This document shows positions 13,910 through 31,337 of a DNA stretch of 40,000 nucleotides, piece by piece. Each line of letters begins with the position of its first letter. The stretch's first letter is position 1. Source of the DNA: an uncultured Alphaproteobacteria bacterium. Lineage in GTDB: Bacteria > Pseudomonadota > Alphaproteobacteria > ATCC43930 > CGMCC-115725. The notes beneath the pieces were generated by a model. The model was not told the DNA's origin, made no database searches, and saw nothing but the letters and a program-made list of their open reading frames with translations. The stretch lies in contig CAWJFM010000023.1 of the NCBI GenBank assembly GCA_963842175.1, positions 1,396,751 through 1,436,750 on the forward strand, given 5' to 3'. Made by a program: the position numbers and the translations under genes.

Positions 13910-13911
13910 GG

Positions 13912-14226: not shown

Positions 14227-14341
14227 CGCGCCGAGCCAAGCCGATAGTCCGCCGGAGGCATCCGGCGCCGCATTCTGCGTTGCGTTTGCCCCAGGTGACG
14301 TCACCGCGTGCAGGTCAAGGTCCATGCAAGGTCGGCGTGCG

Positions 14342-15193
14342 TCAGCATGCAGTGCTTGTGTAGAAATTGCCGCCGTTCCAGCAGACGGCATGACCGCCGA
14401 GACTGGTATCGATGTAGAGCACCGTCTCGCTGATATGACCGCTGCTGTCGGTCTGAAGGATGGTGTTGGCCCCGGAATTGCCGATCGGTGTCCCCGTCGC
14501 CAGCGCGGTGCCGCCGGTGCCGCTCCATCGCACGACATAACCGTCGGTTGAGCTACCCGGCCCGGTCACGAGATTGGCGATGACCGAACTCGACAGATGG
14601 CCGCTTGAGTCCGTCTCCATCACCGTATTGGCGCCGGAATTGCCAACCGGATAACCGGTCGCCAGCACACACCCGTTGGTGCTGCCCCACGATGCGACAT
14701 AACCGGCGGTCGTGCTGCCAGGACCGGTGATGCAGAAGCTCCCCGTGATGCCGATCGCCGAGGCAGTTGCCGGCGTCGCTCCGACAACCCGGAAATTGCC
14801 GGAATTGTCGAATTCGAGGGCCAGCATTTCGTAATTGCCGGCCGCGGTGGTGACCGATGTGACGGAATGCCCGCTCGGAAAGAGGATATTCCCGCCGCCC
14901 GTGGCGTTGGTCTGCACCGTTACCTGGTGGGCGTTATCGTTGACGACCTTGATCGTCCAGCCCGATGGCAAAACCCCGGATGTCGTTGCATTGGCCGGTA
15001 ATGTGATCGTCAGCGTGCCGCCGGCGTTGTAGGCCGAAAACACTGACCCCGAATCGTTCGGCACTGCGGTGTAGCTGGCGGCCGACGGATAGCGCCAATA
15101 ATCGTTGGCGCTGATCAGCTGCGCCCGCGCGGGAGGGCAGCCGAGGCCGGCAAGCAGCAGGGCGCAGACGAGGGCAGCCGAGCGCAGCATCAT
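14342..15193 (-). CDS. tail-fibre-like repeat protein with N-terminal signal peptide
   Basis: 283 aa. ATGA overlap with the upstream tail gene. MMLRSAALVCALLLAGLGCPPARAQ signal. Two tandem ~54-aa repeats (TGPGSTTAGYVASWGSTNGCVLATGYPVGNSGANTVMETDSSGHLSSSV / TGPGSSTDGYVVRWSGTGGTALATGTPIGNSGANTILQTDSSGHISETV) at 14408-14731. Confidence 0.55.
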   Translation of the reverse strand: MMLRSAALVCALLLAGLGCPPARAQLISANDYWRYPSAASYTAVPNDSGSVFSAYNAGGTLTITLPANATTSGVLPSGWTIKVVNDNAHQVTVQTNATGGGNILFPSGHSVTSVTTAAGNYEMLALEFDNSGNFRVVGATPATASAIGITGSFCITGPGSTTAGYVASWGSTNGCVLATGYPVGNSGANTVMETDSSGHLSSSVIANLVTGPGSSTDGYVVRWSGTGGTALATGTPIGNSGANTILQTDSSGHISETVLYIDTSLGGHAVCWNGGNFYTSTAC

Positions 15194-15813
15194 GGCGGTG
15201 CACTCCCGACGAGGCTCCAGAACACCGAGGCGAGCGTCGCGTCGGGCGACGCCGGCGCGACGATCGTCAGCACGTCGCCGATCGCGAAGGCGGTCGCCGC
15301 CGACATCGTAAAGCTCGCGGTCGTCGCGCTGGCCGCGAACGCCATCGTCCCGACGGCGCTGCCGTTCTTTTCGATCGAGTAGGTCGCCGTCCCCGTCGCC
15401 GCGGTCCCCGCAGCGCCCTGGCTGCCGCTGAGCCCGGCCGGAAAGGTCGTCGCCTGGCCGAAAACATAACGCTGCACGACCTGTGACGGCGTGGTCGGCC
15501 CGCTATAGGAGGCCGCGACCACCATCGCCGCGGCGCCGGCGCCGGTCAGCGTGTAGGTGACGGCGCCGACCTCGGCGAGGCTCTGCAGGGCCTGGCCGAA
15601 GGTGTTGAACGATAAGAGCTTCACAAAGATCGTCGAACCGATCAGGTTTGCCGGATAGCTGTAGCGGAACAACGACGGGTCATTCGGGCCGAAGCGCGCG
15701 AATTGGGCGCCGCTCGAATGGCTGCCGATCGGCGTCCCGTAAACGCCGCGGCGCAGCAGCGTCGTCAGGTTGTAGCGGTAGGCGGCGGTGAGGTTCGCGG
15801 TCTCATAGCTGAC
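15190..15813 (-). CDS. 3' portion of a tail (host-specificity-type) protein gene split by the 13.2-kb insertion
   Basis: In frame from 15813: VSYETANLTAAYRYNLTTLLRRGVYGTPIGSHSSGAQFARFGPNDPSLFRYSYPANL...SLVGSAPP. Joins seamlessly to 29025-29690 once the insertion and one repeat copy are removed. Confidence 0.8.
   Translation of the reverse strand, partial: VSYETANLTAAYRYNLTTLLRRGVYGTPIGSHSSGAQFARFGPNDPSLFRYSYPANLIGSTIFVKLLSFNTFGQALQSLAEVGAVTYTLTGAGAAAMVVAASYSGPTTPSQVVQRYVFGQATTFPAGLSGSQGAAGTAATGTATYSIEKNGSAVGTMAFAASATTASFTMSAATAFAIGDVLTIVAPASPDATLASVFWSLVGSAPP
15799..15813. repeat. target-site duplication, left copy
   Basis: GGTCTCATAGCTGAC is identical to 29025-29039 and directly abuts the left terminal inverted repeat. 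Confidence 0.85.
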
Positions 15814-15887
15814 CCCCTGGGAGCACGTCCGTCCGAACGGCAGGGTAGAGTGGTGCGGTGGTCAACAAAACTAATTGACGTGTCGCT
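15814..15887. repeat. left terminal inverted repeat
   Basis: CCCCTGGGAGCACGTCCGTCCGAACGGCAGGGTAGAG... matches the reverse complement of 28951-29024 at 67 of 74 positions. The first 37 nt are perfect. Confidence 0.9.
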
Positions 15888-15920
15888 CCCAAATCGGCTT
15901 TGTCTACCGTATTGTCACTG

Positions 15921-16213
15921 CCCGGCCTCCGGTGTCCCGGCCAGCCCCGCTGCGCTCGTCGGGCCGCGCTGGTGCTCGCTGAGGCAGTTCCAGCTCGCCC
16001 CGGCCTTGGTTAGCTCGGCCGGCGCCCGTGCACCCCAGCGGGCGCTCGCTGAGGCGGTTTCCGGCCCGGCCTGGACTCGGGTAGCTCGTCCCCGCCGTTC
16101 CGTGGCCTCGCGGGCTTCGCTGGCGGTCGCTGAGGCGTTTCCGGCCGCGCCCGGCCTCAGATAGGTCGGTCGCCCGCTCGCTGCGCTTGCTGGGCCGCGC
16201 TGGCGCTCGGGGG
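15921..16213. repeat. left subterminal array of about 4 degenerate 65-85-bp tandem units
   Basis: Each unit starts CCCGGCCT and ends with a CGCTGG-GCTCGCTGAGGCGGTTTCCGG-like core (15961-15990, 16040-16064, 16117-16145, partial at 16195-16213). The same core occurs inverted at the right end and once internally at 17322-17353. Confidence 0.75.
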
Positions 16214-16424
16214 AAATGGATGGGTGGGGGTGTGCTGTTTCGTGACGCACCCGGACACCTCGGTGGGGTGCGGCACGCAGCAACCGCCGGGTCGATCACA
16301 GCTTGGCGATGCCCCGATTTACCATTGCCTGAGCCATTCAAAGGCACGACTTTGGCCACGACGTTGCCGGCAATTCTGGCGAATATCGGATTAACTATAA
16401 AGAGCCGAAGCCAGGGAGGGATAA

Positions 16425-16628
16425 ATGGGCGAGTGGGTAGTCATGGCAATCTTAATGGTCAACGGCTCTAATTTACGAGTTGAAGTGGACAAGGCCGCGA
16501 GCCTTCAAGAATGCAAAATGAAGGCTATGCAGGCATATGCTCATTTGCCAAATGGACCGATCTTTTGTCAGCACGTTGATCAAGTCGAGTTAATCGACGT
16601 TTACGGAAACGCCCGACCAATACAATAA
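16425..16628 (+). CDS. hypothetical small protein
   Basis: 67-aa ORF with the GGGAGGG RBS 5-11 nt upstream of the ATG. Low-GC codon usage. Confidence 0.4.
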   Translation: MGEWVVMAILMVNGSNLRVEVDKAASLQECKMKAMQAYAHLPNGPIFCQHVDQVELIDVYGNARPIQ

Positions 16629-16649
16629 ATCCAGAGTTGTTTGGATCAG

Positions 16650-17234
16650 ATGAGCGCTATGCCTAAAACATCCATGCAAGCCATGATGATCGTGGCCGTG
16701 CTCGCGATCGTTCCGGCGGCTTTGGCAGCAAGTGTCGCCACGCGCGTTGTGCTCTACGCGCCTTATGGAATCGACGGACGCCTTCGATCGGGATTTACCG
16801 CTAGCCTACCGGTCCACGGCTCGTGTTGGACTTCATCGCTTGCCTCAACTCGGCCGGACGCATGGCGGTGCATGACTGGAAACTTCATCCACGACCCATG
16901 TTTTAGCAATCCCGCAAAGACCCAGGTGGCCTGCCCATCCGATCCGTTTAGAAAAGCGGTACTGGTGATCGACCTCGACAAGGCATTGCCCGCGCATTAC
17001 GGACAGTCAGGACAAAGCCCGTGGGCGCTCCGATTAGCCAATGGTGCGATCTGCGGCTTCGTAACCGGTGCCACGGGCGTCGTTGCCGGAATGCGATTGA
17101 ACTATGGATGCACAGGTAAAGGCTGGGTGATCGGAGAGGTAGACCGGTCGACTCGACCCTGGCGCGTCTTTTATACCCCTGATACTCAAAGCGGGGATTA
17201 CGTTCAAGTTGACGTGTCCGAAGCGGTCCTTTGA
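16650..17234 (+). CDS. secreted hypothetical protein
   Basis: ORF 16641-17234, ATG at 16650. Signal peptide MQAMMIVAVLAIVPAALAASVA. Cys-rich mature part. No family recognised. Confidence 0.55.
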   Translation: MSAMPKTSMQAMMIVAVLAIVPAALAASVATRVVLYAPYGIDGRLRSGFTASLPVHGSCWTSSLASTRPDAWRCMTGNFIHDPCFSNPAKTQVACPSDPFRKAVLVIDLDKALPAHYGQSGQSPWALRLANGAICGFVTGATGVVAGMRLNYGCTGKGWVIGEVDRSTRPWRVFYTPDTQSGDYVQVDVSEAVL

Positions 17235-17560
17235 TTTGAGTGGGCTTTGACGCTGCACAGGGAGCAAAAGACGGGACGCACGGCTATGGTAACAGTATAA
17301 ACAAACCTATCGGCTAGACTTGGCCGCGCTCGCGGTCGCTGAGGCGGTTCGGGCGAACCGTTTTCCGGTCATCGGCTTTCCGAGCACGAACTTAGCCAGC
17401 AACGCGGCATTGGACCCCGGCTTGGGTCGGCTCTGAGCAACTTCGATTCTTCAATGTTGACCGCGGCACTCTGTGGGAAAACTTTAGATGGGTTTGCCAA
17501 GCCGTGGTTATTGACAGGGGGGCTTTGTCCTCCGCATTCGAATGATTTTCATAAGGCGCC

Positions 17561-17740
17561 TCACCGGAACTTAATCCCGGTCATCAAGGAAAAGATCAAC
17601 GCGACGACTCCGATCACGATACAGAAGATCCCGAAGGCTACTGCGCCTTCGTTGGCTTTCCTCTGCTCGTCGAGTGTAAGCCGGTTGCGCCGGTAAATTT
17701 GCCGGTATGGGTGTTTTTGACGGTCGGTCGTTTTCGGCAT
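17561..17740 (-). CDS. small membrane protein
   Basis: C-terminal 59 aa of ORF 17561-18319, from the ATG at 17740: MPKTTDRQKHPYRQIYRRNRLTLDEQRKANEGAVAFGIFCIVIGVVALIFSLMTGIKFR. The rest of that ORF is antisense to the recombinase gene. Confidence 0.4.
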   Translation of the reverse strand: MPKTTDRQKHPYRQIYRRNRLTLDEQRKANEGAVAFGIFCIVIGVVALIFSLMTGIKFR

Positions 17741-17818
17741 GGTGCTACTTCGCTTTAGGGACCCCCTCGCGGAGGTTCCAAAACCGTTAGAAATCCTAAG
17801 CTTTGGTGGGCGATCCGC

Positions 17819-18371
17819 ATGTCTTTCACCAGATATGCACGGGTATCGACGGACGGCCAAAGCGTCGACGCGCAGATCACGGCGTTGACCGTCGCCGGCG
17901 CTGAAAAAGTTTCCCGCGAAGTGGCGAGCGGAACCAAGACCGACCGGGCGCAGCTCTTCCGATTGCTCGACCGGCTCGACGACGGCGACGTGCTGATGGT
18001 GACGCGGCTCGACCGGCTCGCGCGCTCGACCCGCGATCTTCTCAATGCCCTCGCGGCGATCACCGGCAAGGGAGCCGGTTTCCACTCGCTCGGCGACGCA
18101 TCGGCGAACACGACACCGCCGCACGGCTGGTTGATGCTCACCGTGCTTGGCGGCCTTGCCGAGTTCGAGCGCGAATTGATCCGCACGCGCACCGGCGAAG
18201 GACGGGCACGGCCGAAGGCTCGCGGTGTCAAACTCGGCCGGCGGCCGAAACTTACCCCGCACCAGAAGCGCGAGGGCTTTGGCGCGGCGCGAAAAGGGCA
18301 AGGAGACACTTGCCGACATCGGCCGCAGCTACAACGTGAGCGCATGGACGATTTCAAGGCTGACAGCTTGA
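17819..18371 (+). CDS. small serine recombinase (resolvase/invertase family); one frame break near 18275
   Basis: YARVSTDGQSVDAQ (catalytic Ser motif), VTRLDRLARSTRDLL and LAEFERELIRTRTGEGRARPKARG. Dropping one G of GAGGGC restores the C-terminal HTH ALARREKGKETLADIGRSYNVSAWTISRLTA, with a stop at 18369-18371. Confidence 0.85.
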
Positions 18372-18410
18372 CCTCGCGCACGTTTGGACGCTGAGGAGGA
18401 AACGCAAACG

Positions 18411-19250
18411 ATGGGCCGCCCCTTCGATTCGTGGCAGGATTACCAGTTATTCTCCCGCGCCGTCCGGAAACACAGAAGATATATCAGGACTCCGTCAGAA
18501 CAGGCCTTTTTAGAGGCAGTACGCGTCACAGTGAAAGACCGTATAATAACTCGTCCGGCGGGATACACGTTTTGGCGCGCGCAGCGCGGATACTGTGTGG
18601 GGTCAACCGCAATGGACAACGTCGACATTATCGACGCAGTTCCGTATCCGTCGGAACGAATGAAACCTCGTACCAATCAAGCCTCCGAAGGCGGAGCTAA
18701 TCCAAAAGACATTCCATGTCTCTATGGCGCGACTTCTCCTGATACCGCTGTGGCGGAAGTAAGGCCATGGAAGGGAGAACTTGTTTCAATTGGCAAATTT
18801 ACTCTATGTCGTAACGTGAAAATAGTAGAATGTTTAAAATATCATGATGAAGACCCCCATGATGTCTTTCTGAATACGCTCTACCCTCTTATGACATCAG
18901 CTACGGGAGAGATTGTTGCGGGCGAGCCGGAACCCCCTTCAGACGAAGCTGTAATAAAAAACGTGTGGACGCATATAGATAAGGCATTCTCTGAACCAGT
19001 AACACACAGCGATGACCACGTAGACTACGTACCGACACAGAATTTAGCAGAATTATTCAAGACAGAGGATTACGATGGCGTGTGTTATCACAGTCAGCTT
19101 TCAGATATGGGTGTTAATTTGGCGTTTTTTGACCTAGAGATAGCAACAGTAGCAGGCCGCCATTTGCGCCAAGTGACTGACGTAAAAATAGAATCCAAAA
19201 TGCGCGAAGGCCGCGGGATTGATCCCCATTCCGGCAAGCCAAATAATTAG
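18411..19250 (+). CDS. RES-domain protein
   Basis: FWRAQ, GGANPKDIPCLYGATSPDTAVAEVRPWKG and YVPTQNLAELFKTEDYDGVCYHSQLSDMGVNLAFFD fit the RES family pattern. The usually conserved Arg of the GRxN motif reads Gly here. Markedly AT-richer than its neighbours. Confidence 0.65.
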   Translation: MGRPFDSWQDYQLFSRAVRKHRRYIRTPSEQAFLEAVRVTVKDRIITRPAGYTFWRAQRGYCVGSTAMDNVDIIDAVPYPSERMKPRTNQASEGGANPKDIPCLYGATSPDTAVAEVRPWKGELVSIGKFTLCRNVKIVECLKYHDEDPHDVFLNTLYPLMTSATGEIVAGEPEPPSDEAVIKNVWTHIDKAFSEPVTHSDDHVDYVPTQNLAELFKTEDYDGVCYHSQLSDMGVNLAFFDLEIATVAGRHLRQVTDVKIESKMREGRGIDPHSGKPNN

Positions 19251-19299
19251 AGATTTGGCGACGACTGGCGCGACGCGTAGGGTGTCCGTTGTCCTAGTC

Positions 19300-19625
19300 A
19301 TGGCGATCTTAACCACCGCTTTGCTGATCACGTCATCGGAAGCAGCGCAGCCGGGTAACTATAATCTGATCGGCGCCGGAACCATTTCATGCGGGAGGCT
19401 GGACAGCGTTGCGGCGTCGAGGGCAGGCAGACTTTGCCGAACAGTGGATTTTGGGCTTCCTCTCCGGAGTTGGCTATGAGGCAGGAGGGGATAACCCTCT
19501 GAACCCCCTGAATGGCGTTGATGCGGCTGCCCGTCTGGGCTTGGATGGATAACTACTGCCGAGCCAATCCTCTAAATACCGTCGCAGCCGCTGGTGCGGC
19601 ATTCGCTGCAACACATCCTCGCTGA
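19300..19625 (+). CDS. small secreted protein, spread over three frames
   Basis: MAILTTALLITSSEAAQ signal, then ...ISCG..., FAEQWILGFLSGVGYEAGGDNPLNPLNGVDAAA, and WAWMDNYCRANPLNTVAAAGAAFAATHPR in successive frames. Stop at 19623-19625. Confidence 0.4.
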
Positions 19626-19703
19626 CTTTCCAGAATCCCGCGTTATCCGCCGCGCCAGTCTGCCGACTTTCCAGAAGTGACCTTATCGGCCATCCGGAGC
19701 GGG

Positions 19704-20135
19704 TCAAAACGGAACGTCGTCGTCGTCGAGATCGGCCGCGGCGGCGCCGCCACCGCTGAGCTAAGCCGCGCTGGCATCGTCTCGCCGACCGTCGAGCATG
19801 ACAAGCTTGCCGCGGTGCTGCGACAGCACGATCTCGGTTGCGCTGCGCTGCGGGCCTTCCTGATCCTTCCATTGGCGGGTCCGTAGCTGCCCCTCGATGT
19901 ATACTTTGGAGCCTTTGCGCAGATATCTGAAGGCGACTTCGGCGAGCTGTTCGCTAAAGATAGTGATGTGATGCCATTCGGCACGCTCGCGCCGCTCGCC
20001 GCTAGTCCGATCGTGCCAACTCTCCGATGTCACGAGGTTAAATGAAATGACAACGCCGCCCGCCTGTGTCGCCCGCATCTCGGGATCGTGTCCGAGGTTA
20101 CCGATCAGGATTACTTTGTTGATGTTACCGGCCAT
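19704..20135 (-). CDS. ssb: single-stranded DNA-binding protein with an in-frame TAG at 19761-19763
   Basis: MAGNINKVILIGNLGHDPEMR...WHHITIFSEQLAEVAFRYLRKGSKVYIEGQLRTRQW is an OB-fold SSB. After the TAG the same frame continues LSGGGAAAADLDDDDVPF then stop, the canonical acidic SSB tip. Confidence 0.85.
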
Positions 20136-20138
20136 GAG

Positions 20139-22397
20139 TCATTCTTCATGCGGTAAAAAATCGATATGATCGGGCATACCTTCAAGCCAAACGTCTTCGC
20201 CCATCAGCTCCAATTCGCCGCTGTCATTAATCACCGTGATAAGCTTGTCGAAATCAGCCGGTTTATATCCTTCACTTTCGGCAAAGAGAGACCCGACGCG
20301 GGGAGACGTGGTCAGACTTCCATCGTCATTGACGACAACACGCATCCGGTGCCGCTTGCTATCCCATTCAAAGGTTTCGTGGCGTGTTTCGTCCTTCCAT
20401 TGACCTGCAAGCCAGGACTTGCCGCGGGCAAGTGCCAGCCGGTTCCCGTAAAATACAGGGATGGTTACAGGAACCGAGGGGAGCTTCCGTTCTTTCAGAA
20501 GGAGTTCTTTGGCGCCAGGTCGGCATAAAAGCTCGAACCATTCCTCGAACGTTCGAATAAATTGCGGGGCTGCCTTACCAATCACAGAACGTTTGACACC
20601 GCGCGATTTGATACGATCGGTCAATTCAGAAGCCGAGTCATCCGAATGACGCAGCAAGGTCGGTGAAAAATACACTCCGGGCTGAGCGATAAAGAGATCG
20701 GGCCATTGCTTCAATTCCCATTGCCCCAGCCCCTTACCGATATCGAGCGCGAGGGGTCGGGTGCTGAACACAGCATCGGTTGCGATCATCACCACCGCCT
20801 CGGGGTCTTGCCCGACTGCTTCCATGATCCGCGCTCGCGTTATTGCGGTGATCAAGCCGGCCTCTACCACGTCGTGATAAGGCCCGTGTCCGCTGCGCTG
20901 GGCGCGTTTGCCGTAAAGTGAGTTCAGCGCGAGCTTGAGGGGATAGCCTTTGGTCGAGGCGCCCAATCGTTGCCGTTCCACGTAAACCTCGGTGATCCAG
21001 TCATACGGCCGGCAATCGCAGCAGCGCTTGGCGATCCAAACATCGTGAACGGTGATGATGTCAGCTTGCAGGTGCTGGCAAGCCGCTTCGATTTCCGGTG
21101 ACCAATACCACCCGGTTCCGCGCAACGGCCAGAACAAGCCGCCCTTCTGCCGAAAAGGAAAGCCGCACCACAAGCTATCGGGCGGATGCGAGAACGTCAC
21201 CTTGGCAAGATAAAGTTCGCCGTTGGTCGGCAACCGCCGACGTCGGCTGTGAACCCATCGCGTATGTTGCGGGCATGGCATTTGCAGCATTCCCGCGGGA
21301 TAGGCGCTTTTGAGATCGTTTTCGAACAAGGGACCGGTGAGGAAACCGATCCGCGAAACCTCGAAGCGCCCGCCATAGTACGCAAGGTTCGCGGCGATTT
21401 CTAATTCACGATCTCGCTCGGGCCGGCGCGGCGACGGATTGTTGGAAGGCTTACTTTCCGCCGCCTCCCGCTGTTCTCTGGCAGTCAATGGCCGCTTCAA
21501 CGCACCGTGTTGTTTGAGCATTGCTGCAGCAAGCCAACCAGCTCCGGCCCATCGTTCCGGGCGAATTCCGGCGGCATAGCATACCTCGCGGAATTCGGTC
21601 ATGAGCACAGCGAGATAACGGCATTCCAAAGTGCAATATTCAATCATCTGGTCGGTTAATTCGGTAAATTCGTTCCTGATATCCTTATTCGCCTTAATGA
21701 TAGCGCGCTCGGCCTCATTACCGATGTTCCAATCCGTAATAGCTTTCACGAAAGTGCATTGAAAAAACCCAAGCGTTTCATAAACCGTTCGGCTTGATCC
21801 TTTCAAGACCCTCGGCTTCGGCCCGCTCCGATCGATCCGAGCGACGCGCAGGTATTGTCCTTGCTGATAGGTGATCGCGTATTCTCTCCAGAATACCGGG
21901 ATCGGCCCGTTCTTGCCCTGTCGTGGATTGATGATTTCCCGCAGCTTTTGGCCAGGAATACCCCGCAGGATTTGGGTTGCGTCGTAACCAATACCATATC
22001 CTACGAGAATAGGTTCTTTGGGAAGGCTCAGCAGAAATTCAAAACAATCTACAATGGACAACGCTTTGCCCTTATTGTGACGAATGTGCTTTGTCTCTCC
22101 CGATGCGTCCGCGGCGACCATCAATAAATAATGCTGCCGCCCGAGATAGTCCGTTCCGCCGCCTTCTCCGTCTATTGCCAGGAACGGGCGGAGTTCCCCG
22201 TTGGCGCGTGCTTCCCGCTTTCGCTCGCGTTCGCGTCCGAACTGTTCGGGAGTTTGTCGCTGGCGAGCGTCGCGCTTGCGGCGGCGTTCTTGCTCGCGCC
22301 GCGCTTCGACCTCCAGCGCATATTCCGGCCCCAGCGCCTTGATCCTCTCGCGGACGTACTCGACCGCAGCCGCAGCGTCGGATGGTAAGGTTGTCAT
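20139..22397 (-). CDS. family-B DNA polymerase (752 aa)
   Basis: Start at MTTLPSD (ATGA overlap with the upstream ORF). ExoI FLAIDGEGG, ExoII GYGIGYD, ExoIII YCTLECRYL. Motif A FENDLKSAYP, motif B KLALNSLYGK, motif C VMIATDAVF. KSRG lies where KxY normally sits. No frame break in 2.26 kb. Confidence 0.8.
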   Translation of the reverse strand: MTTLPSDAAAAVEYVRERIKALGPEYALEVEARREQERRRKRDARQRQTPEQFGRERERKREARANGELRPFLAIDGEGGGTDYLGRQHYLLMVAADASGETKHIRHNKGKALSIVDCFEFLLSLPKEPILVGYGIGYDATQILRGIPGQKLREIINPRQGKNGPIPVFWREYAITYQQGQYLRVARIDRSGPKPRVLKGSSRTVYETLGFFQCTFVKAITDWNIGNEAERAIIKANKDIRNEFTELTDQMIEYCTLECRYLAVLMTEFREVCYAAGIRPERWAGAGWLAAAMLKQHGALKRPLTAREQREAAESKPSNNPSPRRPERDRELEIAANLAYYGGRFEVSRIGFLTGPLFENDLKSAYPAGMLQMPCPQHTRWVHSRRRRLPTNGELYLAKVTFSHPPDSLWCGFPFRQKGGLFWPLRGTGWYWSPEIEAACQHLQADIITVHDVWIAKRCCDCRPYDWITEVYVERQRLGASTKGYPLKLALNSLYGKRAQRSGHGPYHDVVEAGLITAITRARIMEAVGQDPEAVVMIATDAVFSTRPLALDIGKGLGQWELKQWPDLFIAQPGVYFSPTLLRHSDDSASELTDRIKSRGVKRSVIGKAAPQFIRTFEEWFELLCRPGAKELLLKERKLPSVPVTIPVFYGNRLALARGKSWLAGQWKDETRHETFEWDSKRHRMRVVVNDDGSLTTSPRVGSLFAESEGYKPADFDKLITVINDSGELELMGEDVWLEGMPDHIDFLPHEE

Positions 22398-22810
22398 GCT
22401 GCCGCCCTGCGACGGATGCCGGCGCGTGTCGAGTAGTAGAGGCGCCACAGCGAGCCGCGATAAAACGGCCACTCGGCGAAGGGATCGGGAGCGCTCGGCG
22501 GCACGTAGTCGGGATAGCGTTGAACCGCTGCCCGGAACCGATCTTGTTCGTTGATCGACAGCGCGTTGAACAGGCTGCGGTCGCGGTCGCTGAGCGCGAC
22601 CCGGAACTCTTCCCGTGTTTCAATTGCCCGGATGCCGCGCCGCGCTGCCGCTGCCCGCCGCTGCGCCCGGCGGCGCGCCTCGGGATTTTTCGCACGGGCC
22701 GCTCGCGCTTCGGCGAGCGCTCGGCGCCTGCTCAGCTCGGCCCGGTGCTGCCGCTCGTAGGAAGGAGTGCCGGGCCGGTACGGATTGCGTCGCGGGCGCC
22801 GCTCAGCCAT
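22394..22810 (-). CDS. basic hypothetical protein translationally coupled to PolB
   Basis: MAERRPRRNPYRPGTPSYERQHRAELSRRRALAEARAARAKNPEARRR...FAEWPFYRGSLWRLYYSTRAG. Its stop overlaps the polB ATG. Confidence 0.5.
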   Translation of the reverse strand: MAERRPRRNPYRPGTPSYERQHRAELSRRRALAEARAARAKNPEARRRAQRRAAAARRGIRAIETREEFRVALSDRDRSLFNALSINEQDRFRAAVQRYPDYVPPSAPDPFAEWPFYRGSLWRLYYSTRAGIRRRAAA

Positions 22811-23166
22811 GGCGTGCCGCCACATGAAAATGGCGAGCCTCCCGCCAGCGCGGGCGCGAGCCTAAAACGAAAAAGTCCGGGTCCGGCGAGAACAAAATCG
22901 GATCGAACCGCGGTCGGAATTCGTCGGCATCGAGCGCCACAGCGAGCCGCGCATACGCGGCAGTCATTGGCCGCGCTCCCACCGCGGGACCTCGGCATTG
23001 CCTCGCTCCGCCCGCCATGGTAAAGCGTTCACCATGAAGTTCCCCCCTCCGCGGCAGCCGCCGTGGTTGTATGGACTGGGCGACCGATATCATGTGCGGA
23101 AAAATGCCGCAAGAAATATCGGGAGCATGCCTTCTTTTCAAACAGAATCAGTGCTATAAGAGGCGC

Positions 23167-23793
23167 ATGAACACCAAGCGCCAGGCCTTGGACGCCACCT
23201 CAGCCCTCAAATCCGGCGACCTCTCGAAGGCCGTTAGGCTTGCGGCCAAAGCCGCCAAAACCGCCAAAACCGCCGAAGATGGTCTACTACCTCTGCTCAA
23301 CGAGGCCATGCAGGCAGGGATAGCCCTCGGGCAGGCGAGCGGCAAAAGCGAGGCTCCGCCGCCGGAAGCATTGGGATTTTTGCGCTTTTTAGCGGCAGCG
23401 CCGGTTGCCGCGGAGGGCTTTCGGACACTGCGGGAAAGCCTCGGAATCTCGCAGGCTGAGATTGCCGAAATGTGCGGCGTCTCCCGCGCGGCTGTGTCCG
23501 ACTGGGAGCGTGGCAAAGCGTCTCTGCCGCCAGCCGCCGTTCATGCCCTTCTCGGGTTAACGATGGCCCGCCTTGGTCGGGCCGAGCCGGCGCCGCTGCT
23601 CGGCAGCGATATAGCCAGGATTCGCAAAGCACTCCGGATGCGGCAAACCGATTTAGCCGCTGCACTCGGAGTCAGCGAGATCGCGGTCAGGAAATGGGAG
23701 CAGCGTGGCGATCAGCCGCTTGCTTCATCGACGGTTCGCCGCATCCAGCCCCGGCTCGACGAACTACAGGCGCAAGCGTCAGCAGCGTCTTGA
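23167..23793 (+). CDS. DNA-binding protein with two XRE/Cro-type HTH domains
   Basis: ORF 23071-23793 trimmed to the ATG at 23167. LRESLGISQAEIAEMCGVSRAAVSDWERGK and IRKALRMRQTDLAAALGVSEIAVRKWEQRG. Divergent from the polB operon and immediately upstream of the Cas1-like gene. Confidence 0.7.
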   Translation: MNTKRQALDATSALKSGDLSKAVRLAAKAAKTAKTAEDGLLPLLNEAMQAGIALGQASGKSEAPPPEALGFLRFLAAAPVAAEGFRTLRESLGISQAEIAEMCGVSRAAVSDWERGKASLPPAAVHALLGLTMARLGRAEPAPLLGSDIARIRKALRMRQTDLAAALGVSEIAVRKWEQRGDQPLASSTVRRIQPRLDELQAQASAAS

Positions 23794-23833
23794 TCTGATC
23801 ACTCGGTTCAAATTCGAGCCGCTCGGATCGGGA

Positions 23834-23864
23834 TTGATTTTAATCGCCGTCGAATTGGTATAGT
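23834..23864 (+). promoter_or_regulatory. candidate promoter for the Cas1-like gene
   Basis: TTGATT (23834-23839) and an extended -10 TGgTATAGT (23856-23864). The spacer is 19 nt, longer than optimal. Lies in an AT-richer gap. Confidence 0.25.
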
Positions 23865-24100
23865 ATTGAATTTGCTCCGCAAAGGGGCGCACCGGAGCAG
23901 GCGCTGGAACGCCTGCCCCGGCACTTGATCAACGATGCGATAGGAGCGCACCGTGACCCTGCTGATACGTGTTCCCAAACCTCAGAGGCGTCAACCGGGT
24001 CGTTGCCCGCTCTTAGACGGACAGACCGTCCCGACTGCGGGCATTCTGTTCAATCGCTGCATCGTCCACCCGAGCCAAACGGAAAACCGGAGGCTCCCTC

Positions 24101-25744
24101 ATGCACGCCGATGACACGAACTACACCGTCATTAAGAATGGCGTGGTTGTCGTGAGCGGCACCGGCCCGGCGATCCGCGTCGACGGCAACAAGCTGGTCA
24201 TCCGCGACGGCCCGAAGGAAACCCCGCCGCTCGCGCTGACGCGGGCGGAAGCCTCGCGAAGGCTGCGACATATCATCGTCACCGGGCAGGCCGGCGGCTT
24301 CATCACCTTCGACGCGCACCGATGGCTGCGCGACACGGGTGTTGCGTTCTCTCAAGTCGATTGGGATGGGAGCGTCATCATTGCTTCCGGATCGCGACGA
24401 CCCGACCGGCCGGCGCTGCGCCGGGTGCAAACGCTCATATGCAGCGGAGTCATTCCACAAACAGCGGTCGCCATCACGCGCGAAATCCTGCGCGTCAAGC
24501 TGGCCGGCCAAGCTGAGGTTGCCCGGCTGCTAGGGCGGGCGGAGGCGAGCGCGGCCATCGCCGGCCTCACTGCGGACATCGCTCGCGAGGCGGCCGGCCC
24601 AAAGGTGCTGGCGATCGAAGCGAAGGCGGCCTCGATTTACTGGCGCGAGTGGGCAACGGTGCCGGTGCGGTTCGCCCGCGACAACCCGCAGCGGCTCGAT
24701 CATAAGGGACGATGGCGGCCCGGCCGAGCCGCGGCATGGCATACATTCGGAAGCCGGGTGTCGGCGTTGACCGGTAAGCCGCGGCGGGCGACTACGGCCG
24801 GCAACGCGATTCTCAATTTCCTGCTAGGGATCGCAAAAATCGAGATGACCGTTGCCTTGTACGCGGTCGGACTCGACGCAGGGATTGGACTATTTCATGC
24901 CGATGAGGACGGCCGCCCCTCGCTGGCGCTGGATGCGCAAGAGGCAGTCCGTCCGTATATCGACGCATGGTGTCTCTCGTTCCTGGCAGCGACGGCTTTC
25001 GCCAATCGTGATTTCCACGAAACCGCAGAAGGTGAGGTTCGGCTTACCCATCCGCTCACGGCGCACCTTGCACATATGGCCGCGCTGTGGCGGCCGGCGT
25101 GCGAGCGGGTAGCGGCATGGCTGGCGCAGGCGTTCGCCGGTACGGTTGACCTTCCCGCCGACAAACCCGGCGCTGACGATCTGCCGCGGATCGCTGCCGC
25201 TGTCGCCGGGCCGCGGAAGCGAGGCGCGCGGCAACTGGCGCCCTTACCTCGACTGTTGCCGGTGCCCACCGGGCGGGACTTGAGTAGCCTGCCGGCACTG
25301 CGCGGCGGCTTGCGCGACAACCCCGTACCGCAGGCGTGTTTCGAATGCGGCCGAGCGCTGACGCGGAAGCAACGCCGTTTCTGTTCGACCGCTTGTACAG
25401 CCGCCTTTTCTACGGCCTCGGGGCGGATCGCAGCGATGCGTGAATTGTCTGCGGGATCAACCGACCGTTCCGAAACCCTTCGCGCCGCCAATGCCGCACG
25501 ACGCGAATGGGCAGCCCATCACGCCGCGGATCGGGTCGCCTTCGATCGCTGGTATTCGGCTGCGATAGAGCCGCGCCTTACCTCGCTCCGCACCGCCGAT
25601 ATTCGGCGCTCCCTTGCGGTGTCCTGGAGTTATGCTACCCTCATCAAGCAGGGGCGGCGAACGCCACACCCGCGACATTTTCCGGCCTTAGCGAAGCTCG
25701 CCGGGGTTGAGGCGCCGAGCATCGGCGCGGCGGGTAGCGGATGA
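24101..25744 (+). CDS. cas1: Cas1-like integrase (putative casposase) with a C-terminal Cys4 and HTH-like extension
   Basis: GGAGG RBS. HIIVTGQAGGFITFDAHRWLRDTGVAFSQVDWDG (N-terminal domain). AIEAKAASIYW (E173), TAGNAILNFLLG (N235), GLDAGIGLFHADEDGRPSLALDAQEAVRPYID (H266, D278/E281) match the Cas1 catalytic-domain pattern by eye. CFECG...RFCSTAC at residues 413-432. No frame break in 1.64 kb. Confidence 0.8.
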   Translation: MHADDTNYTVIKNGVVVVSGTGPAIRVDGNKLVIRDGPKETPPLALTRAEASRRLRHIIVTGQAGGFITFDAHRWLRDTGVAFSQVDWDGSVIIASGSRRPDRPALRRVQTLICSGVIPQTAVAITREILRVKLAGQAEVARLLGRAEASAAIAGLTADIAREAAGPKVLAIEAKAASIYWREWATVPVRFARDNPQRLDHKGRWRPGRAAAWHTFGSRVSALTGKPRRATTAGNAILNFLLGIAKIEMTVALYAVGLDAGIGLFHADEDGRPSLALDAQEAVRPYIDAWCLSFLAATAFANRDFHETAEGEVRLTHPLTAHLAHMAALWRPACERVAAWLAQAFAGTVDLPADKPGADDLPRIAAAVAGPRKRGARQLAPLPRLLPVPTGRDLSSLPALRGGLRDNPVPQACFECGRALTRKQRRFCSTACTAAFSTASGRIAAMRELSAGSTDRSETLRAANAARREWAAHHAADRVAFDRWYSAAIEPRLTSLRTADIRRSLAVSWSYATLIKQGRRTPHPRHFPALAKLAGVEAPSIGAAGSG

Positions 25745-25957
25745 CCCCCGTGCGCAGCGACATTGGGGGCGGCATTCATTGCGGCCTTCTCCGCGCTGGC
25801 CTGCGCTGTTGGGCAGCGCCAATCCATACTGTTCCCCGGTGCAGATCGTCCGCGTATCGGCTTCAAATGTTGCTGGCCTCCTGCAAATTCCCGAAGGCGC
25901 CCGGTCGAAGCGGCCCCGCGCTGGCGCGCCTTCAAATTTAGAGCGAGGCGGGCTTAA

Positions 25958-26648
25958 CTACAGGCTGGCACTTGCAGCCATCTGTGCCGCTCTGACGATC
26001 CGGTCTTGCTCCGCTTTCTCCTGATGCCAAACTTCTCGCTCCTGAGCGTAGGCTTCGAAATCTTGTCGGATTTTCTTCTCAGCCTGTGCGGCACCCTCCA
26101 AAACGGACTTACAACCCGAGGCAAGGTCAGTTTCGACCTGAAATGACACTCCGAGGGAGCTGCCACCGCTGCAAATGGCCGAGGTCGCATGGAGGAGCGG
26201 CAAGAAATTGTTGGCCCAATACTGATGGTTGTTCCGGAGAGTTGTCACCTGCATGTGGAGGTTGCTCGCTTGCAGCCCCATCTGGATTAGCTGAACCGAA
26301 AATTGCACCCGCGTGGCGCCAGTTTGTCCGGGAGCAGGTGAATAGAAAGTGCGTTCCCTTTCCAGACCGTTTCTCATCGCCGCGGTGATATCTCGATACC
26401 TTTGTTCGATCCTCTCCAACTGGCGAACGCGCTCGGCAACCGCAGAACTCAATACCTGCGTTGTCCGATAGAACCTGATTGATGTGTTCCCTCAGGCTCT
26501 GTTGCGCGGCTTGCTGCGCCTGCCGCGCTCGCTGTGCTGCCGCCTGTGCAGCTTTTTGCTGCTGTTCAGCTTGCCGAGCTGCGGCAATGCGAACCGCTTT
26601 CCGTTCCGTTACCGGACGGTGGGATTTCCGAGCAACATCGAAATACAT
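25958..26648 (-). CDS. coiled-coil hypothetical protein (one gene with a frame break near 26460, or two genes)
   Basis: MYFDVARKSHRPVTERKAVRIAAARQAEQQQKAAQAAAQRARQAQQAAQQSLREHINQ (from the ATG at 26648) runs into VLSSAVAERVRQLERIEQRYRDITAAMRNG... of ORF 25958-26452 after a 1-nt shift. Confidence 0.4.
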
Positions 26649-26869
26649 CTACCCGGTGTGAGCTGGACATGTTGGGCTGCGGCAATCGCGTCTATCGCCG
26701 AGTCCGGAAGCACGGCCACAATCGCAGCTCCAATTCCACCTTGGCGCATCGCCTCCTGTCGAATTTCGTCGCGCACGATCCCGCATGGGCTGAGTGTGCC
26801 GAATTTCAGTAGCACGACGCCAGCCGCGATTGCTACCAGAGCAATGCATATGAAGCCGGCTTCGCGCAT
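26609..26869 (-). CDS. membrane hypothetical protein
   Basis: ORF 26609-26881 from the ATG at 26869: MREAGFICIALVAIAAGVVLLKFGTLSPCGIVRDEIRQEAMRQGG... The tail overlaps the next gene by 40 nt. Confidence 0.4.
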   Translation of the reverse strand: MREAGFICIALVAIAAGVVLLKFGTLSPCGIVRDEIRQEAMRQGGIGAAIVAVLPDSAIDAIAAAQHVQLTPGRCISMLLGNPTVR

Positions 26870-26986
26870 CGCAGCCCCCAAAGGTCGGTGTGCGCCAAGT
26901 AGGCGTTAATGGTGAATATAAACCTAATACGGTTTATCATAGCGCTGTTGCTGGCGGTTTTCGAATGGCTGGCGATGGTGATCGGC

Positions 26987-27064
26987 ATGATCACCTCTCG
27001 GCAGATCAGAGCCGCTCACGCGCTTCTCGGCTGGTCTCAACAGCAGCTTGCCGACAAGGCATCT
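26987..27064 (+). pseudogene. 5' fragment of an XRE-type HTH gene
   Basis: MITSRQIRAAHALLGWSQQQLADKAS is a typical XRE N-terminus. Downstream, the + frame becomes the antisense of the minus-strand fragment. Confidence 0.45.
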
Positions 27065-27074
27065 CGTCAAAAAA

Positions 27075-27227
27075 TTAGGGGCGGGCGAGCCGCACCCCTT
27101 CTCCCTTCACGTCGGCCGCGAGAAATTCGATGCCGGCTTCCGTCAGTGCTTTGTGGACCGCCATCAACGTGCTCATCCTCGGGTCCACCTCCCCTCGCTC
27201 TAATCGCGCGAGCGCGTTGAGAGAAAT
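27075..27227 (-). pseudogene. 3' fragment of an XRE-type HTH gene, on the opposite strand to its 5' fragment
   Basis: ISLNALARLERGEVDPRMSTLMAVHKALTEAGIEFLAADVKGEGVRLARP then stop. No start codon or first helix upstream. Joining it to 26987-27064 gives a complete in-frame HTH protein. Confidence 0.5.
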
Positions 27228-27274
27228 GATTGGGCAGCCGGCGCTACCCTCGCGCGAAATACGAGAGGGAGGCA

Positions 27275-27537
27275 ATGCCGCATCGACGACGCATTTTGGC
27301 GACACTCGCCGCCCTTGGGTTGCTTCTGGCAACAATAGGCGGCGCGGCAGCTCAGTAACCGGGGGTTGGATTGCGGCTACTACGTCAACCGAAGCGGAGA
27401 AACGCCTCCGCGCCCATGGAAGCGTCAGGGAGGAACAACCGCCACGCGGCGCCACGGCAACATGCCGCGATGGGGAGTACAGCTACAGCCGGCATGATAG
27501 CGGCACGTGCTCCGGACAGGGCGGCGTGCAAAGCTGA
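27275..27537 (+). CDS. DUF3761-like secreted protein, spread over three frames
   Basis: GAGGGAGG RBS. MPHRRRILATLAALGLLLATIGGAAAQ signal, then GYYVNRSGE..., then PPRGATATCRDGEYSYSRHDSGTCSGQGGVQS (the C-DG-YS-S...GTCS-GGV signature). Confidence 0.6.
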
Positions 27538-27753
27538 CTCTGCTGAATGTCAAGCCGAGTGGGTGCGCCATGCAATTCTTCGCCGCCGCTTCGATCATAA
27601 TCGCCGGCATCGTCGGCACGATACTCGCGGTGTTTGATCGTTCTCGCGATGCGCCAAGGCTGGCGCGAGGGCGACGTGGTTGAAGTTCACTCGGCCCTGA
27701 CGGGATGCAGGTCATCGATCTCCAAGAGCGGCAGCACCGCGCAGAGTTCGCCG

Positions 27754-27948
27754 ATGATCACTGATCTCGACATTTACCGTGCTGCGAATTTGCTGATCGA
27801 GCGGCACGGCCCGAATGCGCTCATTGAGGCGGCCCGGCTAATCGATCGGATGCTAGAGCGCGGCGACCGCGATGGGCAACTTGTGTGGCTACGGATCAAG
27901 CGGGCGATCGAGGCGTTGCAAGCACCGCCGAGCGGGACGAGGCATTAA
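27754..27948 (+). CDS. hypothetical small protein
   Basis: ORF 27634-27948 trimmed to the ATG at 27754: MITDLDIYRAANLLIERHGPNALIEAARLIDRMLERGDRDGQLVWLRIKRAIEALQ. Confidence 0.5.
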   Translation: MITDLDIYRAANLLIERHGPNALIEAARLIDRMLERGDRDGQLVWLRIKRAIEALQAPPSGTRH

Positions 27949-28241
27949 TGACGAACGACCTGGAGATCATACATATTCTTTGGCGCGGACCATTAACATT
28001 GGCAGATGCAAGCACTGCCAATACAGGTGGCGACTACGGCGTGTATCAAATCTATGGCACACATGAAACAGGAGGACCTGATACGCTGCTCTATGTAGGT
28101 CAGGCTGATCGGGGAACGTTCGATGGCCGCATCCTGTATCATTATTCAGAATGGGGCCGGTGGAACCCCGATGATCTCAAAATTTACCTCGGACAAATGG
28201 CGGGGGTCAGGCCGATAACCAACGACGCTTGGGGCAATTAA
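27948..28241 (+). CDS. hypothetical protein
   Basis: ORF 27885-28241 trimmed to the ATG at 27948 (TAATG overlap with the upstream stop): MTNDLEIIHILWRGPLTLADAS... Lower GC. Confidence 0.45.
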   Translation: MTNDLEIIHILWRGPLTLADASTANTGGDYGVYQIYGTHETGGPDTLLYVGQADRGTFDGRILYHYSEWGRWNPDDLKIYLGQMAGVRPITNDAWGN

Positions 28242-28444
28242 CAGTTCGCGCATTCGATCGCTTCGATATCAAGAGAAACCCATCTTAATCGTAAATCACG
28301 GACGCAGACATCGCCTACCAGAATGCATCTCGACCCTTACCGAATTCATCAACACCGATGGTCGGCTAAAGCCATTTAGCCCGGATAATTCACGAAGTCG
28401 CATAAGGAGGGCGGCGGGAGCAGCATAAGCCGTTGGATTTGTGT

Positions 28445-28700
28445 ATGATTATGGTTGTTCAGGCCAGATCAACCGAAGCAACGGAGTTCGCGCCCGCCAT
28501 GGCGGAAGGTACGGGGATTCTGCCGGGTTTGCCAGCCGTCGCCGGCAAGCCGGTGTATGTCGGTTTCGATGGAGGACGGCTCACCTCAGATGCCGGTATC
28601 CTGTTGCTGTCAGCCGTCGAGCAGCGGCTTCGGATCGCCGAGCGCCTGGCCGCCTGCCTCGAAGACCCGCGCGACCCGGACAGGGTGCGACACGAGCTTG
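28445..28700 (+). pseudogene. N-terminal remnant of an IS1380/IS4-type DDE transposase
   Basis: KPVYVGFDGGRLTSDAGILLLSAVEQRLRIAERLAACLEDPRDPDRVRHEL resembles the N-terminus of DDE_Tnp_1_4-type transposases. The similarity stops after about 85 aa, where the ORF runs into the subterminal repeats. Confidence 0.5.
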
Positions 28701-28708
28701 CCGACGGC

Positions 28709-28940
28709 GAGGCCCGGCGAGCGCATGAGTGGCCGGCTGAGGCCGCCGAGGGGGGGCAAGCCAGAACCGCCTCAGCGGGCGCCAGCGAGGCCCGGCCAGC
28801 GCAGCGGGCGGCTGGCCGAGCTGTCCGGAGGCCGGGTAAGCCGGAACCGCCTCAGCGACCGCGAGCGAGGCCGGGCGAGCGCATCGAGCTACGCGAGGCC
28901 GGGCGACGCGAGGCCGGGCGACGCGAGGCCGGGCGACGCC
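28709..28940. repeat. right subterminal repeats, inverted relative to the left array, plus 3 perfect 15-bp tandem copies
   Basis: GAACCGCCTCAGCG cores at 28765-28778 and 28845-28858 are the reverse complement of the left-end CGCTGAGGCGGTT core. ACGCGAGGCCGGGCG occurs three times in tandem at 28891-28935. Confidence 0.75.
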
Positions 28941-28950
28941 AGGAAGTGGT

Positions 28951-29024
28951 AGTGACGCATCAATAGGTTTTGTTGACCACGGCACCGCTCTACCCTGCCG
29001 TTCGGACGGACGTGCTCCCAGGGG
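28951..29024. repeat. right terminal inverted repeat
   Basis: Its reverse complement matches 15814-15887 at 67 of 74 positions. The terminal 37 nt are perfect. Confidence 0.9.
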
Positions 29025-29039
29025 GGTCTCATAGCTGAC
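29025..29039. repeat. target-site duplication, right copy
   Basis: GGTCTCATAGCTGAC is identical to 15799-15813. Confidence 0.85.
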
Positions 29040-29690: not shown

Positions 29691-29778
29691 CAGGTGTCAG
29701 GAACCAGGAGCCAGGAAGGAATGCGGCGCCCCCACCTTCTTCTTCCTGATCCCTGATCCCTGTCTCCTGGTCCCTGTC

Positions 29779-31153: not shown

Positions 31154-31334
31154 CGGATTGCGGTCCCATCCAGTCGCCGCGGCCCGGACAATTCTCAGGG
31201 CATCGCGCCGCCGAGCGCAGGCAGTCGAACAAGCGCCGGGCCGGGTTGAGCGGGCAGACCGGCACCGCAGTGGCGCGGATCTCCTCGAGCCGCGCCCGGA
31301 TAAAATCGAACGAATCGGCCACAGGGCTGCTCAT
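31146..31334 (-). CDS. small hypothetical protein
   Basis: 62-aa ORF (MSSPVADSFDFIRARLEEIRATAVPVCPLNPARRLFDC...) between the peptidase and tail-protein genes, overlapping the latter by 8 nt. Confidence 0.35.
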   Translation of the reverse strand: MSSPVADSFDFIRARLEEIRATAVPVCPLNPARRLFDCLRSAARCPENCPGRGDWMGPQSDA

Positions 31335-31337
31335 GCC

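Follow-up and report, generated by a model that had tools for sequence, protein, structure and literature searches.

We analysed a stretch of 40,000 nucleotides from an uncultured soil alphaproteobacterium (GenBank assembly GCA_963842175.1, contig CAWJFM010000023.1), referred to here as the window, in which positions are counted from its first letter. Positions 15814-29024 are occupied by an element of 13,211 bp, bounded by terminal inverted repeats (TIRs) within a target-site duplication (TSD). The element is very probably an intact-looking casposon of an undescribed lineage derived from family 3, in which the replication module has been swapped for a tectivirus-like one that is probably protein-primed. 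Casposons, which are self-synthesizing DNA transposons mobilized by an integrase of the Cas1 family, are the presumed ancestors of the CRISPR adaptation machinery, and the few dozen described so far are mostly archaeal. The literature searched divides them into families 1-4 and a fifth, proposed family from hot springs, whose Cas1 lies close to the I-A Cas1 proteins.

A preliminary description of this DNA, made by eye, had proposed a casposon in a bacterium and perhaps a new lineage. The first proposal is borne out: a Cas1 protein, a family-B DNA polymerase (PolB), TIRs and a TSD are all present, and the host belongs to the Alphaproteobacteria. The second holds for the replication module, which differs from published ones in having a tectivirus-type PolB and no detected HNH nuclease, but not for the Cas1 protein, which falls inside the known family 3 as sister to AceAut-C1.

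Element ends and insertion site

The two TIR arms, at 15814-15887 (plus strand) and 28951-29024 (minus strand), are 74 bp long and pair with 67 of 74 positions identical, the outer 37 nt perfectly; a repeat finder reported the pair as 79 nt with 90% complementarity. Outside them lies a perfect 15-bp TSD, GGTCTCATAGCTGAC, with one copy at 15799-15813 and the same letters at 29025-29039. Repeats and duplication were thus recovered as first described. Runs of C and G at the junctions make the boundary ambiguous, with a TSD of 15 bp if the termini are read as CCCC, of 13 bp if they are read as CCCCC, and an identical stretch of up to 16 bp. TIR/TSD overlaps of this kind are common in casposons (PMC4046053). 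The left TIR begins with the terminus CCCCTGGGAGCACGTCCGTCCG, which is kept in six related elements (L006, L007, L009, L010, L016 and L038). The terminal 12-mer CCCCWGGGAGCA is found solely at the two ends of the element and did not occur in any of 100 shuffles. The GC content per kb is 55-66% in the element (mostly 55-62%) compared with 67-70% in the immediate flanks.

When 15814-29039 (the element and one TSD copy) is deleted, the flanks join into a continuous open reading frame (ORF) of 424 aa on the minus strand. This ORF matches the phage tail families phrog_1101 (residues 138-308) and phrog_7049; the junction falls after residue 217, and the phrog_1101 match spans it. The disrupted target is therefore a tail gene, whose 3' part lies at 15190-15813 and 5' part at 29040-29690, both on the minus strand. 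Uninterrupted homologues of the restored protein were found on 12 IMG/VR contigs, the best with 75% identity over residues 1-421. On one IMG/VR contig, L017 (79-80% nucleotide identity), the flanks of the window align to 2998-3666 and 3652-4256, and what the two alignments have in common is precisely the 15-bp target, of which L017 has a single copy. The empty-site junction itself, searched for exactly with wobble degeneracy, had no match in metagenome or viral contigs; it was the homologue search with the restored tail protein that succeeded. Relative to its uninterrupted homologue the 13.2 kb is a discrete presence/absence unit, as had been predicted, with the flanks meeting directly in L017.

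Next to the TIRs lie families of subterminal repeats. On the left, repeats with the core CGCTGAGGCGGTT and a spacing of ~70-81 bp occupy 15946-16220 (plus strand), with an extra copy at 17337 (17337-17349). On the right they are mirrored at 28700-28943 (minus strand) by an array with an 80-bp period and a 15-bp array (Tandem Repeats Finder rows 28707-28889 and 28861-28943), which form inverted-repeat pairs with the left side; the 15-bp array consists of 5.7 copies of GCGACGCGAGGCCGG at 28861-28943, and minus-strand copies of the CGCTGAGGCGGTT motif occur at 28765 and 28845. The motif is enriched, with 12 matches against 2.6 expected. Copies with at most one mismatch are confined to the element, are directed inward from either end, and are absent from the relatives. 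The subterminal repeats are possible protein-binding sites.

Casposase and replication module

The ORF at 24101-25744 (plus strand) encodes a protein of 547 aa in which a Cas1 pattern had been noticed by eye; a profile search gave a match to PF01867 (95.8 bits). The Cas1 domain covers residues ~1-345 and is followed by a linker without ordered structure, a zinc motif of four Cys (C413, C416, C428 and C432) and a C-terminal helical domain resembling a helix-turn-helix (HTH) at ~455-534, which contains an invariant PHPRH motif. Across 21 homologues the four Cys show little or no variation. In a sequence search of the PDB the top match is 6OPM, the casposase of Methanosarcina mazei (E 2.5e-13, compared with 1.8e-8 for the best CRISPR Cas1), which is also the top match by fold of an AlphaFold model (pLDDT 72). 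Residues E173, H266, D278 and E281 are invariant in the 21 homologues and align with the E/H/D/E residues of 6OPM, so the catalytic residues persist on proper alignment. The 6OPM match, with the blastp ranking and tree given below, indicates that this Cas1 groups with casposases rather than with CRISPR-associated Cas1.

Reference Cas1 sequences, which are trimmed ones, were taken from Additional file 2 of PMC4046053. By blastp, the closest is AceAut-C1 (38% identity, 165 bits), followed in order by StrAlb-C1, SacSpi, NitAL212-C1, HenMar-C1 and family 2 (23-26%); family 1 (~20%) and CRISPR Cas1 interleave at the foot of the ranking. The phylogeny suggested in the preliminary description was built by neighbour-joining and places the casposase in family 3, apart from CRISPR Cas1. 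It is sister to AceAut-C1 with a bootstrap of 75, within a clade including StrAlb and SacSpi (98); family 3 as a whole has a bootstrap of 68. Since its Cas1 nests in family 3, the element is a family-3 casposon by its integrase, and the sequence of the 547-aa product is that of a casposase of this family whose predicted active site is intact.

Other features agree with this placement. The gene table of AceAut-C1 lists a Cas1-Zf protein, and a zinc-binding motif C-terminal to Cas1 is found here too; the AceAut-C1 Cas1 has a zinc-binding domain and a C-terminal HTH, and the element has a 602-bp TIR and a 15-bp TSD (PMC4046053). The TSD of 15 bp in the window compares with 15 bp in AceAut-C1 and 14 bp in NitAL212-C1, the long TIRs of related elements (189-590 bp) with the 602 bp of AceAut-C1, and the C/G-rich termini and bacterial hosts are likewise shared with family 3 (PMC4046053, PMC4779613). 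A serine resolvase like the one encoded here is also present in the family-3 element HypCY54-C1.

The replication genes do not follow family 3. They form an operon on the minus strand in the order orf54, orf143, polB and SSB. The polB ORF (20139-22397) encodes 752 aa; the Exo motifs I-III and polymerase motifs A-C, already seen in the preliminary description, are all present, and the sole family match is to PF03175 (42 bits). With an AlphaFold2 model (pLDDT 80) the top nine PDB matches are phi29 DNA polymerase (E 1.5e-15, TM score 0.64), and archaeal PolBs match the same model five orders of magnitude more weakly (E 5e-10, TM 0.33). Sequence searches of the PDB, with the single sequence or a 26-sequence profile, gave nothing useful. 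Among the viral models of BFVD, the best matches are the tectiviruses WheeHeim (Streptomyces; E 9e-40, TM 0.81) and Toil (Rhodococcus), followed by His1 and ABV2. The tblastn matches of the PolB were confined to tectiviruses of Microbacterium, Rhodococcus and Streptomyces (26-28% identity, E values down to 2e-43), to His1 and His2, to ABV and to two Caulobacter records, and there was no match in plasmids.

In a comparison set of viral and family-1 PolBs, the similarity to tectivirus PolBs reached E 2e-56, and the ExoI DGEG and ExoIII YxxxE signatures were exclusive to the window PolB family and the actinobacterial tectivirus PolBs. The family-1 casposon PolB (Nitrosopumilus) is more distant, with 25% identity (E 1e-27), and clusters with His1 and His2 at a bootstrap of 99. 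Motif C of the window PolB is ATD, the first Asp being lost and A539 invariant, and K597-S-R-G600 is invariant as well; the whole clade shares an xTD motif C and K-x-R-G (K[STCQ]RG) variants. On this evidence and its predicted structure, the PolB is of the phi29/tectivirus type, with the actinobacterial tectivirus polymerases as closest relatives, and it is probably protein-primed. The model also contains a beta-rich insertion at ~375-460, between motif A and the finger helices, which by position would correspond to TPR1 of phi29. The first 70 residues form a helical Arg/Glu-rich extension of QTPEQRERERxRKRxAR-like repeats, the copy number of which varies among homologues. The PolBs of Toil and His2 lack this extension, those of WheeHeim and SCoupsA have only short Arg-rich stretches, and the orf143 product is likewise Arg-rich.

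Directly upstream of polB, and overlapping its start by 4 nt (ATGA), lies orf143 (22394-22825, minus strand). Its 143-aa, Arg-rich product is a candidate terminal protein by its position. The gene occurs directly upstream of polB in all related loci, with 48-62% identity between products and invariant residues Y104, Y130, Y131 and T133, and it has no Pfam, PHROG or PADLOC match. The first gene of the operon, orf54 (22803-22967, minus strand; 54 aa), is kept in L007/L014/L015 and L010 and has no family match. The last is the SSB gene (19761-20135, minus strand; PF00436, 113.7 bits), which adjoins polB also in L003 and L005.

Family-3 elements including AceAut-C1 and StrAlb-C1 encode a PolB-HTH protein, with Pol delta as top HHpred match, and an HNH nuclease (PMC4046053). 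By contrast, the PolB described here, which we compared with family-2 and family-3 PolBs by published description rather than by sequence, is of the phi29/tectivirus type (PF03175) and has no C-terminal HTH, an SSB gene and the conserved 143-aa gene accompany it, and the element interrupts a prophage gene that encodes a protein, unlike the family-3 elements described, which lie between genes. A Pfam scan of ~25 ORFs at E <= 0.01-1 detected no HNH domain, in agreement with the preliminary description, although a very divergent HNH could escape it. Nor was a tyrosine recombinase found in the scanned ORFs of the element.

Three other groups share parts of this module. The family-1 casposons of Thaumarchaeota (e.g. 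Nitrosopumilus NitAR-C1) have a PolB of the same broad protein-primed (pPolB) clade, with the xTD motif C and KxRG, and a small conserved gene upstream of polB that has been proposed to encode a terminal protein (PMC4046053). They differ in a Cas1 that is ~20% identical, belongs to another clade and lacks the zinc and HTH extensions, in a PolB that goes with His1 and His2 where that of the window is nearer to tectiviral PolBs, and in their archaeal hosts and aEF-2 gene target. The actinobacterial tectiviruses (WheeHeim, Toil and Microbacterium phages such as SCoupsA) supply the closest PolB relatives (26-28%, TM 0.81), with ExoI DGEG and ExoIII YxxxE in common. They also have a small ORF upstream of or overlapping polB and an adjacent SSB gene (SSB, gp12 and PolB in WheeHeim; gp08 overlapping PolB in Toil), and linear DNA ending in TIRs. 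Unlike them, the element lacks genes for a capsid, a packaging ATPase and lysis, integrates by Cas1 with a TSD and resides in an alphaproteobacterium, and the upstream ORFs are not detectably homologous.

Pipolins (PMC5695915), which we compared by description through published motifs, are also bacterial self-replicating integrated elements with a phi29-like PolB (piPolB) in which the first Asp of motif C is replaced and K-x-R-G stands in place of KxY; the defence-like cargo carried by relatives of our element is a further likeness. Pipolins have a tyrosine integrase and direct repeats, in contrast to the Cas1, TIRs and TSD found here, and the motif variants occur in protein-primed viral PolBs too, so that they are no proof of membership among the piPolBs. 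The published piPolB signatures are SxTTDG and KH-X8-KTRG (PMC5695915).

Related elements, cargo and host context

Hundreds of homologues each of Cas1 and PolB were found in soil metagenomes and metagenome-assembled genomes (MAGs), on the same contigs. All nine genome loci belong to Alphaproteobacteria or to proteobacterium MAGs, and one PolB homologue is named Rhizomicrobium sp. A HMMER scan of a protein library yielded 470 clusters (50% identity) of Cas1 at E <= 1e-30, many of which are ~500-550 aa long and align full-length at 33-40% identity. Among the viral contigs of IMG/VR, a search with Cas1 gave no relatives. Two related elements have well-defined ends: L007 (the same element as L014) is 15,065 bp long with perfect TIRs of 189 bp and a TSD of 14-15 bp, and L010 is ~15.8 kb long with a TIR of 547 bp and a TSD of 15 bp. 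The terminus (C)CCCC[AT]GGGAGCA..CGTCCGTCCG is common to at least seven elements from alphaproteobacterial MAGs and soil metagenomes, with Cas1 only ~55% identical. That the terminus is shared despite this divergence, at separate sites with their own TSDs, points to repeated transposition in the lineage. The three TSD sequences have no common motif, so that target choice looks loose.

A tblastn comparison of all element proteins identified Cas1, PolB and orf143 as core genes present in all related elements, with orf54 and SSB in some. The resolvase, RES and DUF3761 proteins and the remaining ORFs were not found in relatives by tblastn, and for this reason they are regarded as cargo. We would put at about even the proposal that the element is the first recognized member of an abundant, undescribed bacterial lineage of soil Alphaproteobacteria, which combines a family-3 casposase with a tectivirus-type protein-primed module of candidate terminal protein, pPolB and SSB. 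The literature searched, in which subscription papers were poorly covered and one group mentions an unpublished casposon survey, contains no account of a protein-primed-type PolB in a bacterial casposon. There, a pPolB is described solely for the casposons of thaumarchaeal family 1, the bacterial ones having RNA-primed-type PolBs.

The closest relative, L003 (82% Cas1 identity), has a partial right TIR only, lies beside an integrase and IS91, and looks truncated; its positions 2386-3864 encode a reverse transcriptase and a ribbon-helix-helix protein. Cargo at 4063-5946 of L014 includes a GmrSD_N/ScoMcrA_N protein, methyltransferases, radical SAM and Lon_C.

In the window itself, the SSB, small serine recombinase, RES and HTH proteins named in the preliminary description were each identified by Pfam (PF00436, PF00239, PF08808 and PF01381, respectively). 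Left of the polymerase operon are three small cargo ORFs (16425-16628 and 16650-17234, plus strand; 17561-17740, minus strand) without significant Pfam or PHROG match (sub-threshold only, E 0.05-0.16) and not present in relatives. These are followed by the small serine recombinase or resolvase (17819-18394, plus strand; 124 bits) and the RES-domain protein (18411-19250, plus strand; 53.8 bits, no PADLOC match), neither of which is kept in related elements. Divergent from the polymerase operon, a double HTH_3 protein (23071-23793, plus strand, called start 23167; 67 bits in two stretches) is a likely regulator, and its conservation is limited to the C-terminal 63 aa in one relative. A 9-bp tandem repeat, GCCAAAACC, in 3.3 copies at 23245-23274, lies in the 5' part of this gene, near the region of divergent promoters that separates the polymerase operon from the Cas1 operon.

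The right-hand cargo (25958-28241) comprises orf139 (25958-26377, minus strand), several small plus-strand ORFs and a DUF3761 protein (27130-27537, plus strand; PF12587, 47 bits); none is kept in relatives, and the other right-hand ORFs have no match. The gene calls for the three small left-hand ORFs were mapped to the window from L001, the ENA assembly of the same locus. Small indels between the two assemblies after ~26.4 kb (26400-29000) shift the gene calls, which makes the small right-arm ORFs uncertain. With PADLOC, the cargo in the window gave generic HTH matches only. A CRISPR adaptation remnant was also considered and was ruled out: no CRISPR-like repeat array was found in the window, and the scanned ORFs included neither cas2 nor a member of any further Cas family.

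The insertion is surrounded by a phage structural and lysis module on the minus strand (13226-15813 and 29040-39937), either a prophage or a gene-transfer-agent-like cluster. It includes an endolysin (13226-13909), a baseplate hub (31904-34123; PF09931) and a head-tail connector (38380-39216). To the right of the insertion the tail-protein region is broken into several ORFs (29690-30208 and 30290-31153), which suggests frameshifts or assembly errors. Left of ~12 kb are ordinary bacterial chromosomal genes; within this host flank, otherwise 63-73% GC, the single kb at 11001-12000 has 53%.

Proposed mechanism, alternatives and significance

In the mechanism that we propose, the casposase would bind the conserved CCCC(C)WGGGAGCA...CGTCCGTCCG ends, with the inward-directed CGCTGAGGCGGTT repeats next to the TIRs perhaps contributing to recognition, and would join the 3'-OH groups of the ends to target phosphates staggered by ~15 bp, after which gap repair would generate the TSD. 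These steps are proposed because staggered integration has been shown biochemically for other casposases, of families 1 and 2 (PMC5137440, PMC6977970, PMC8464041). Its own PolB would copy the element by strand displacement, starting at the TIRs, with SSB coating the displaced strand and synthesis most likely primed from a terminal protein, for which orf143 is the positional candidate. The sliding-back mechanism of PRD1 and phi29 needs a homopolymeric terminal run, and the terminal run of C would allow it here. Priming by orf143 is favoured because of the clade to which the PolB belongs, the position of the gene and the homopolymeric CCCC terminus; granted that the element is a casposon, we give it roughly an even chance. 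The lineage itself may have arisen when, in a family-3 casposon, replication genes of tectivirus type took the place of the customary PolB-HTH and HNH module.

Several observations weigh against this reading and are considered here with the explanations that they would favour. The grouping of the PolB with tectiviruses has a weak neighbour-joining bootstrap of 34-67 and rests mainly on E-values and two motif signatures, and our trees, including that of the trimmed Cas1 sequences, are neighbour-joining trees on small reference sets. The product of orf143 has no detectable similarity to any known terminal protein and at 143 aa is small for one, and hhalign comparison of its family with the Toil and WheeHeim ORFs that precede polB revealed no similarity. 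Together with a motif C of ATD, with its invariant A539, and the invariant KSRG at the site of the piPolB KTRG (PMC5695915), this makes primer-independent synthesis a live rival: in the same casposon the PolB would start de novo like a pipolin piPolB, without terminal protein, and orf143 would encode an accessory DNA-binding protein. Depositors have indeed annotated the Microbacterium tectivirus homologues as 'DNA primase/polymerase'. We nevertheless regard de novo initiation as unlikely, since xTD and K[STCQ]RG are common to the clade that includes His1, His2, the actinobacterial tectiviruses and the family-1 casposon PolB, a clade of linear TIR genomes classed as protein-primed (PMC4046053). 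The extended KH-X8-KTRG pattern is not seen in this PolB, and a conserved gene overlapping the start of polB is in the classical position of a terminal-protein gene (PMC4046053). It could also be argued that this is an ordinary family-3 casposon, with nothing new in its replication module, and that the apparent difference in the polymerase reflects sequence divergence and bias of the Pfam model. The Cas1 is clearly of family 3, with the architecture of AceAut-C1, and Kazlauskas et al. (PMC7544198) assign the PolB of the A. boonei casposon to PolB_CDTDS, a group with ties to the main PolBs as well as to the pPolBs. However, the published PolBs of AceAut-C1 and StrAlb-C1 have a C-terminal HTH, Pol delta as top HHpred match and HNH alongside; motif C here is ATD rather than CDTDS, the fold matches phi29 five orders of magnitude better than archaeal PolBs (TM 0.64 against 0.33), similarity to tectivirus PolBs extends to E 2e-56 and no HNH was found. 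We consider this explanation very improbable.

Other observations bear on whether the swapped-module casposon is still mobile. The element is single-copy here, with an identical Cas1 only at the same locus in other assemblies of the sample, and its prophage is probably defective. The 16.9-kb element in L008 (435-17383) has TIRs of ~590-980 bp, a different terminus (CACGATGCGAGC...) and no detected TSD. Either this copy has been rearranged, perhaps, or the real ends of the element are at other positions. Several MAG copies have a fragmented PolB or Cas1, which could be decay or long-read assembly error, and fragmentation or loss of one end is seen among L003, L008, L010, L011 and L016. These facts would suit a decayed or domesticated relic, whose Cas1 and PolB no longer serve mobility. 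A relic is quite unlikely given full-length Cas1, PolB, orf143 and SSB with all catalytic motifs, a perfect TSD, identical outer 37 nt of the TIRs, and a terminus kept among elements with ~55% identical Cas1 at different sites with TSDs of their own. A last explanation takes the element for an integrated tectivirus-like virus or linear plasmid, or for an insertion made by the serine recombinase instead of Cas1, in keeping with the tectivirus-like PolB and SSB/small-ORF layout and the presence of a resolvase gene. PHROG and Pfam scans found neither a double-jelly-roll capsid protein nor a packaging ATPase among its ORFs, relatives are absent from IMG/VR (Cas1 search) and from plasmids (PolB tblastn), and Cas1 is always there in the related elements where the resolvase never is. 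To our knowledge, serine recombinases make no 15-bp duplications and need no TIRs. A provirus was thus rejected for want of capsid and ATPase genes, and insertion by the serine recombinase on account of the TSD, the TIRs and the lack of conservation of its gene; an origin of this sort is extremely unlikely.

The lineage described here is of interest to specialists rather than categorically new. The few bacterial (family-3) casposons in published accounts all have an RNA-primed-like PolB and an HNH nuclease; the present element would show that a family-3 casposase can pair with a phage-type protein-primed polymerase module. Such elements appear to form a coherent family with common termini, 14-15-bp duplications and varied cargo, and casposases of the Cas1-zinc-HTH type appear to be far more diverse than those described, as the 470 clusters suggest. 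Insertion into a prophage recalls the published idea that other mobile elements ferry casposons between cells, within the limits that the tail gene is destroyed here and that no relatives were found in viral contigs. No experimental demonstration of casposon self-replication was found in the literature examined, and the element offers a compact bacterial system for testing casposon replication and end recognition. If our reading is true, casposons and tectivirus-like replicons have exchanged replication modules, the pPolBs of the archaeal family-1 casposons and of this bacterial lineage were acquired separately, and the transposition intermediate could be a linear DNA capped by terminal protein and handled by a Cas1 integrase.

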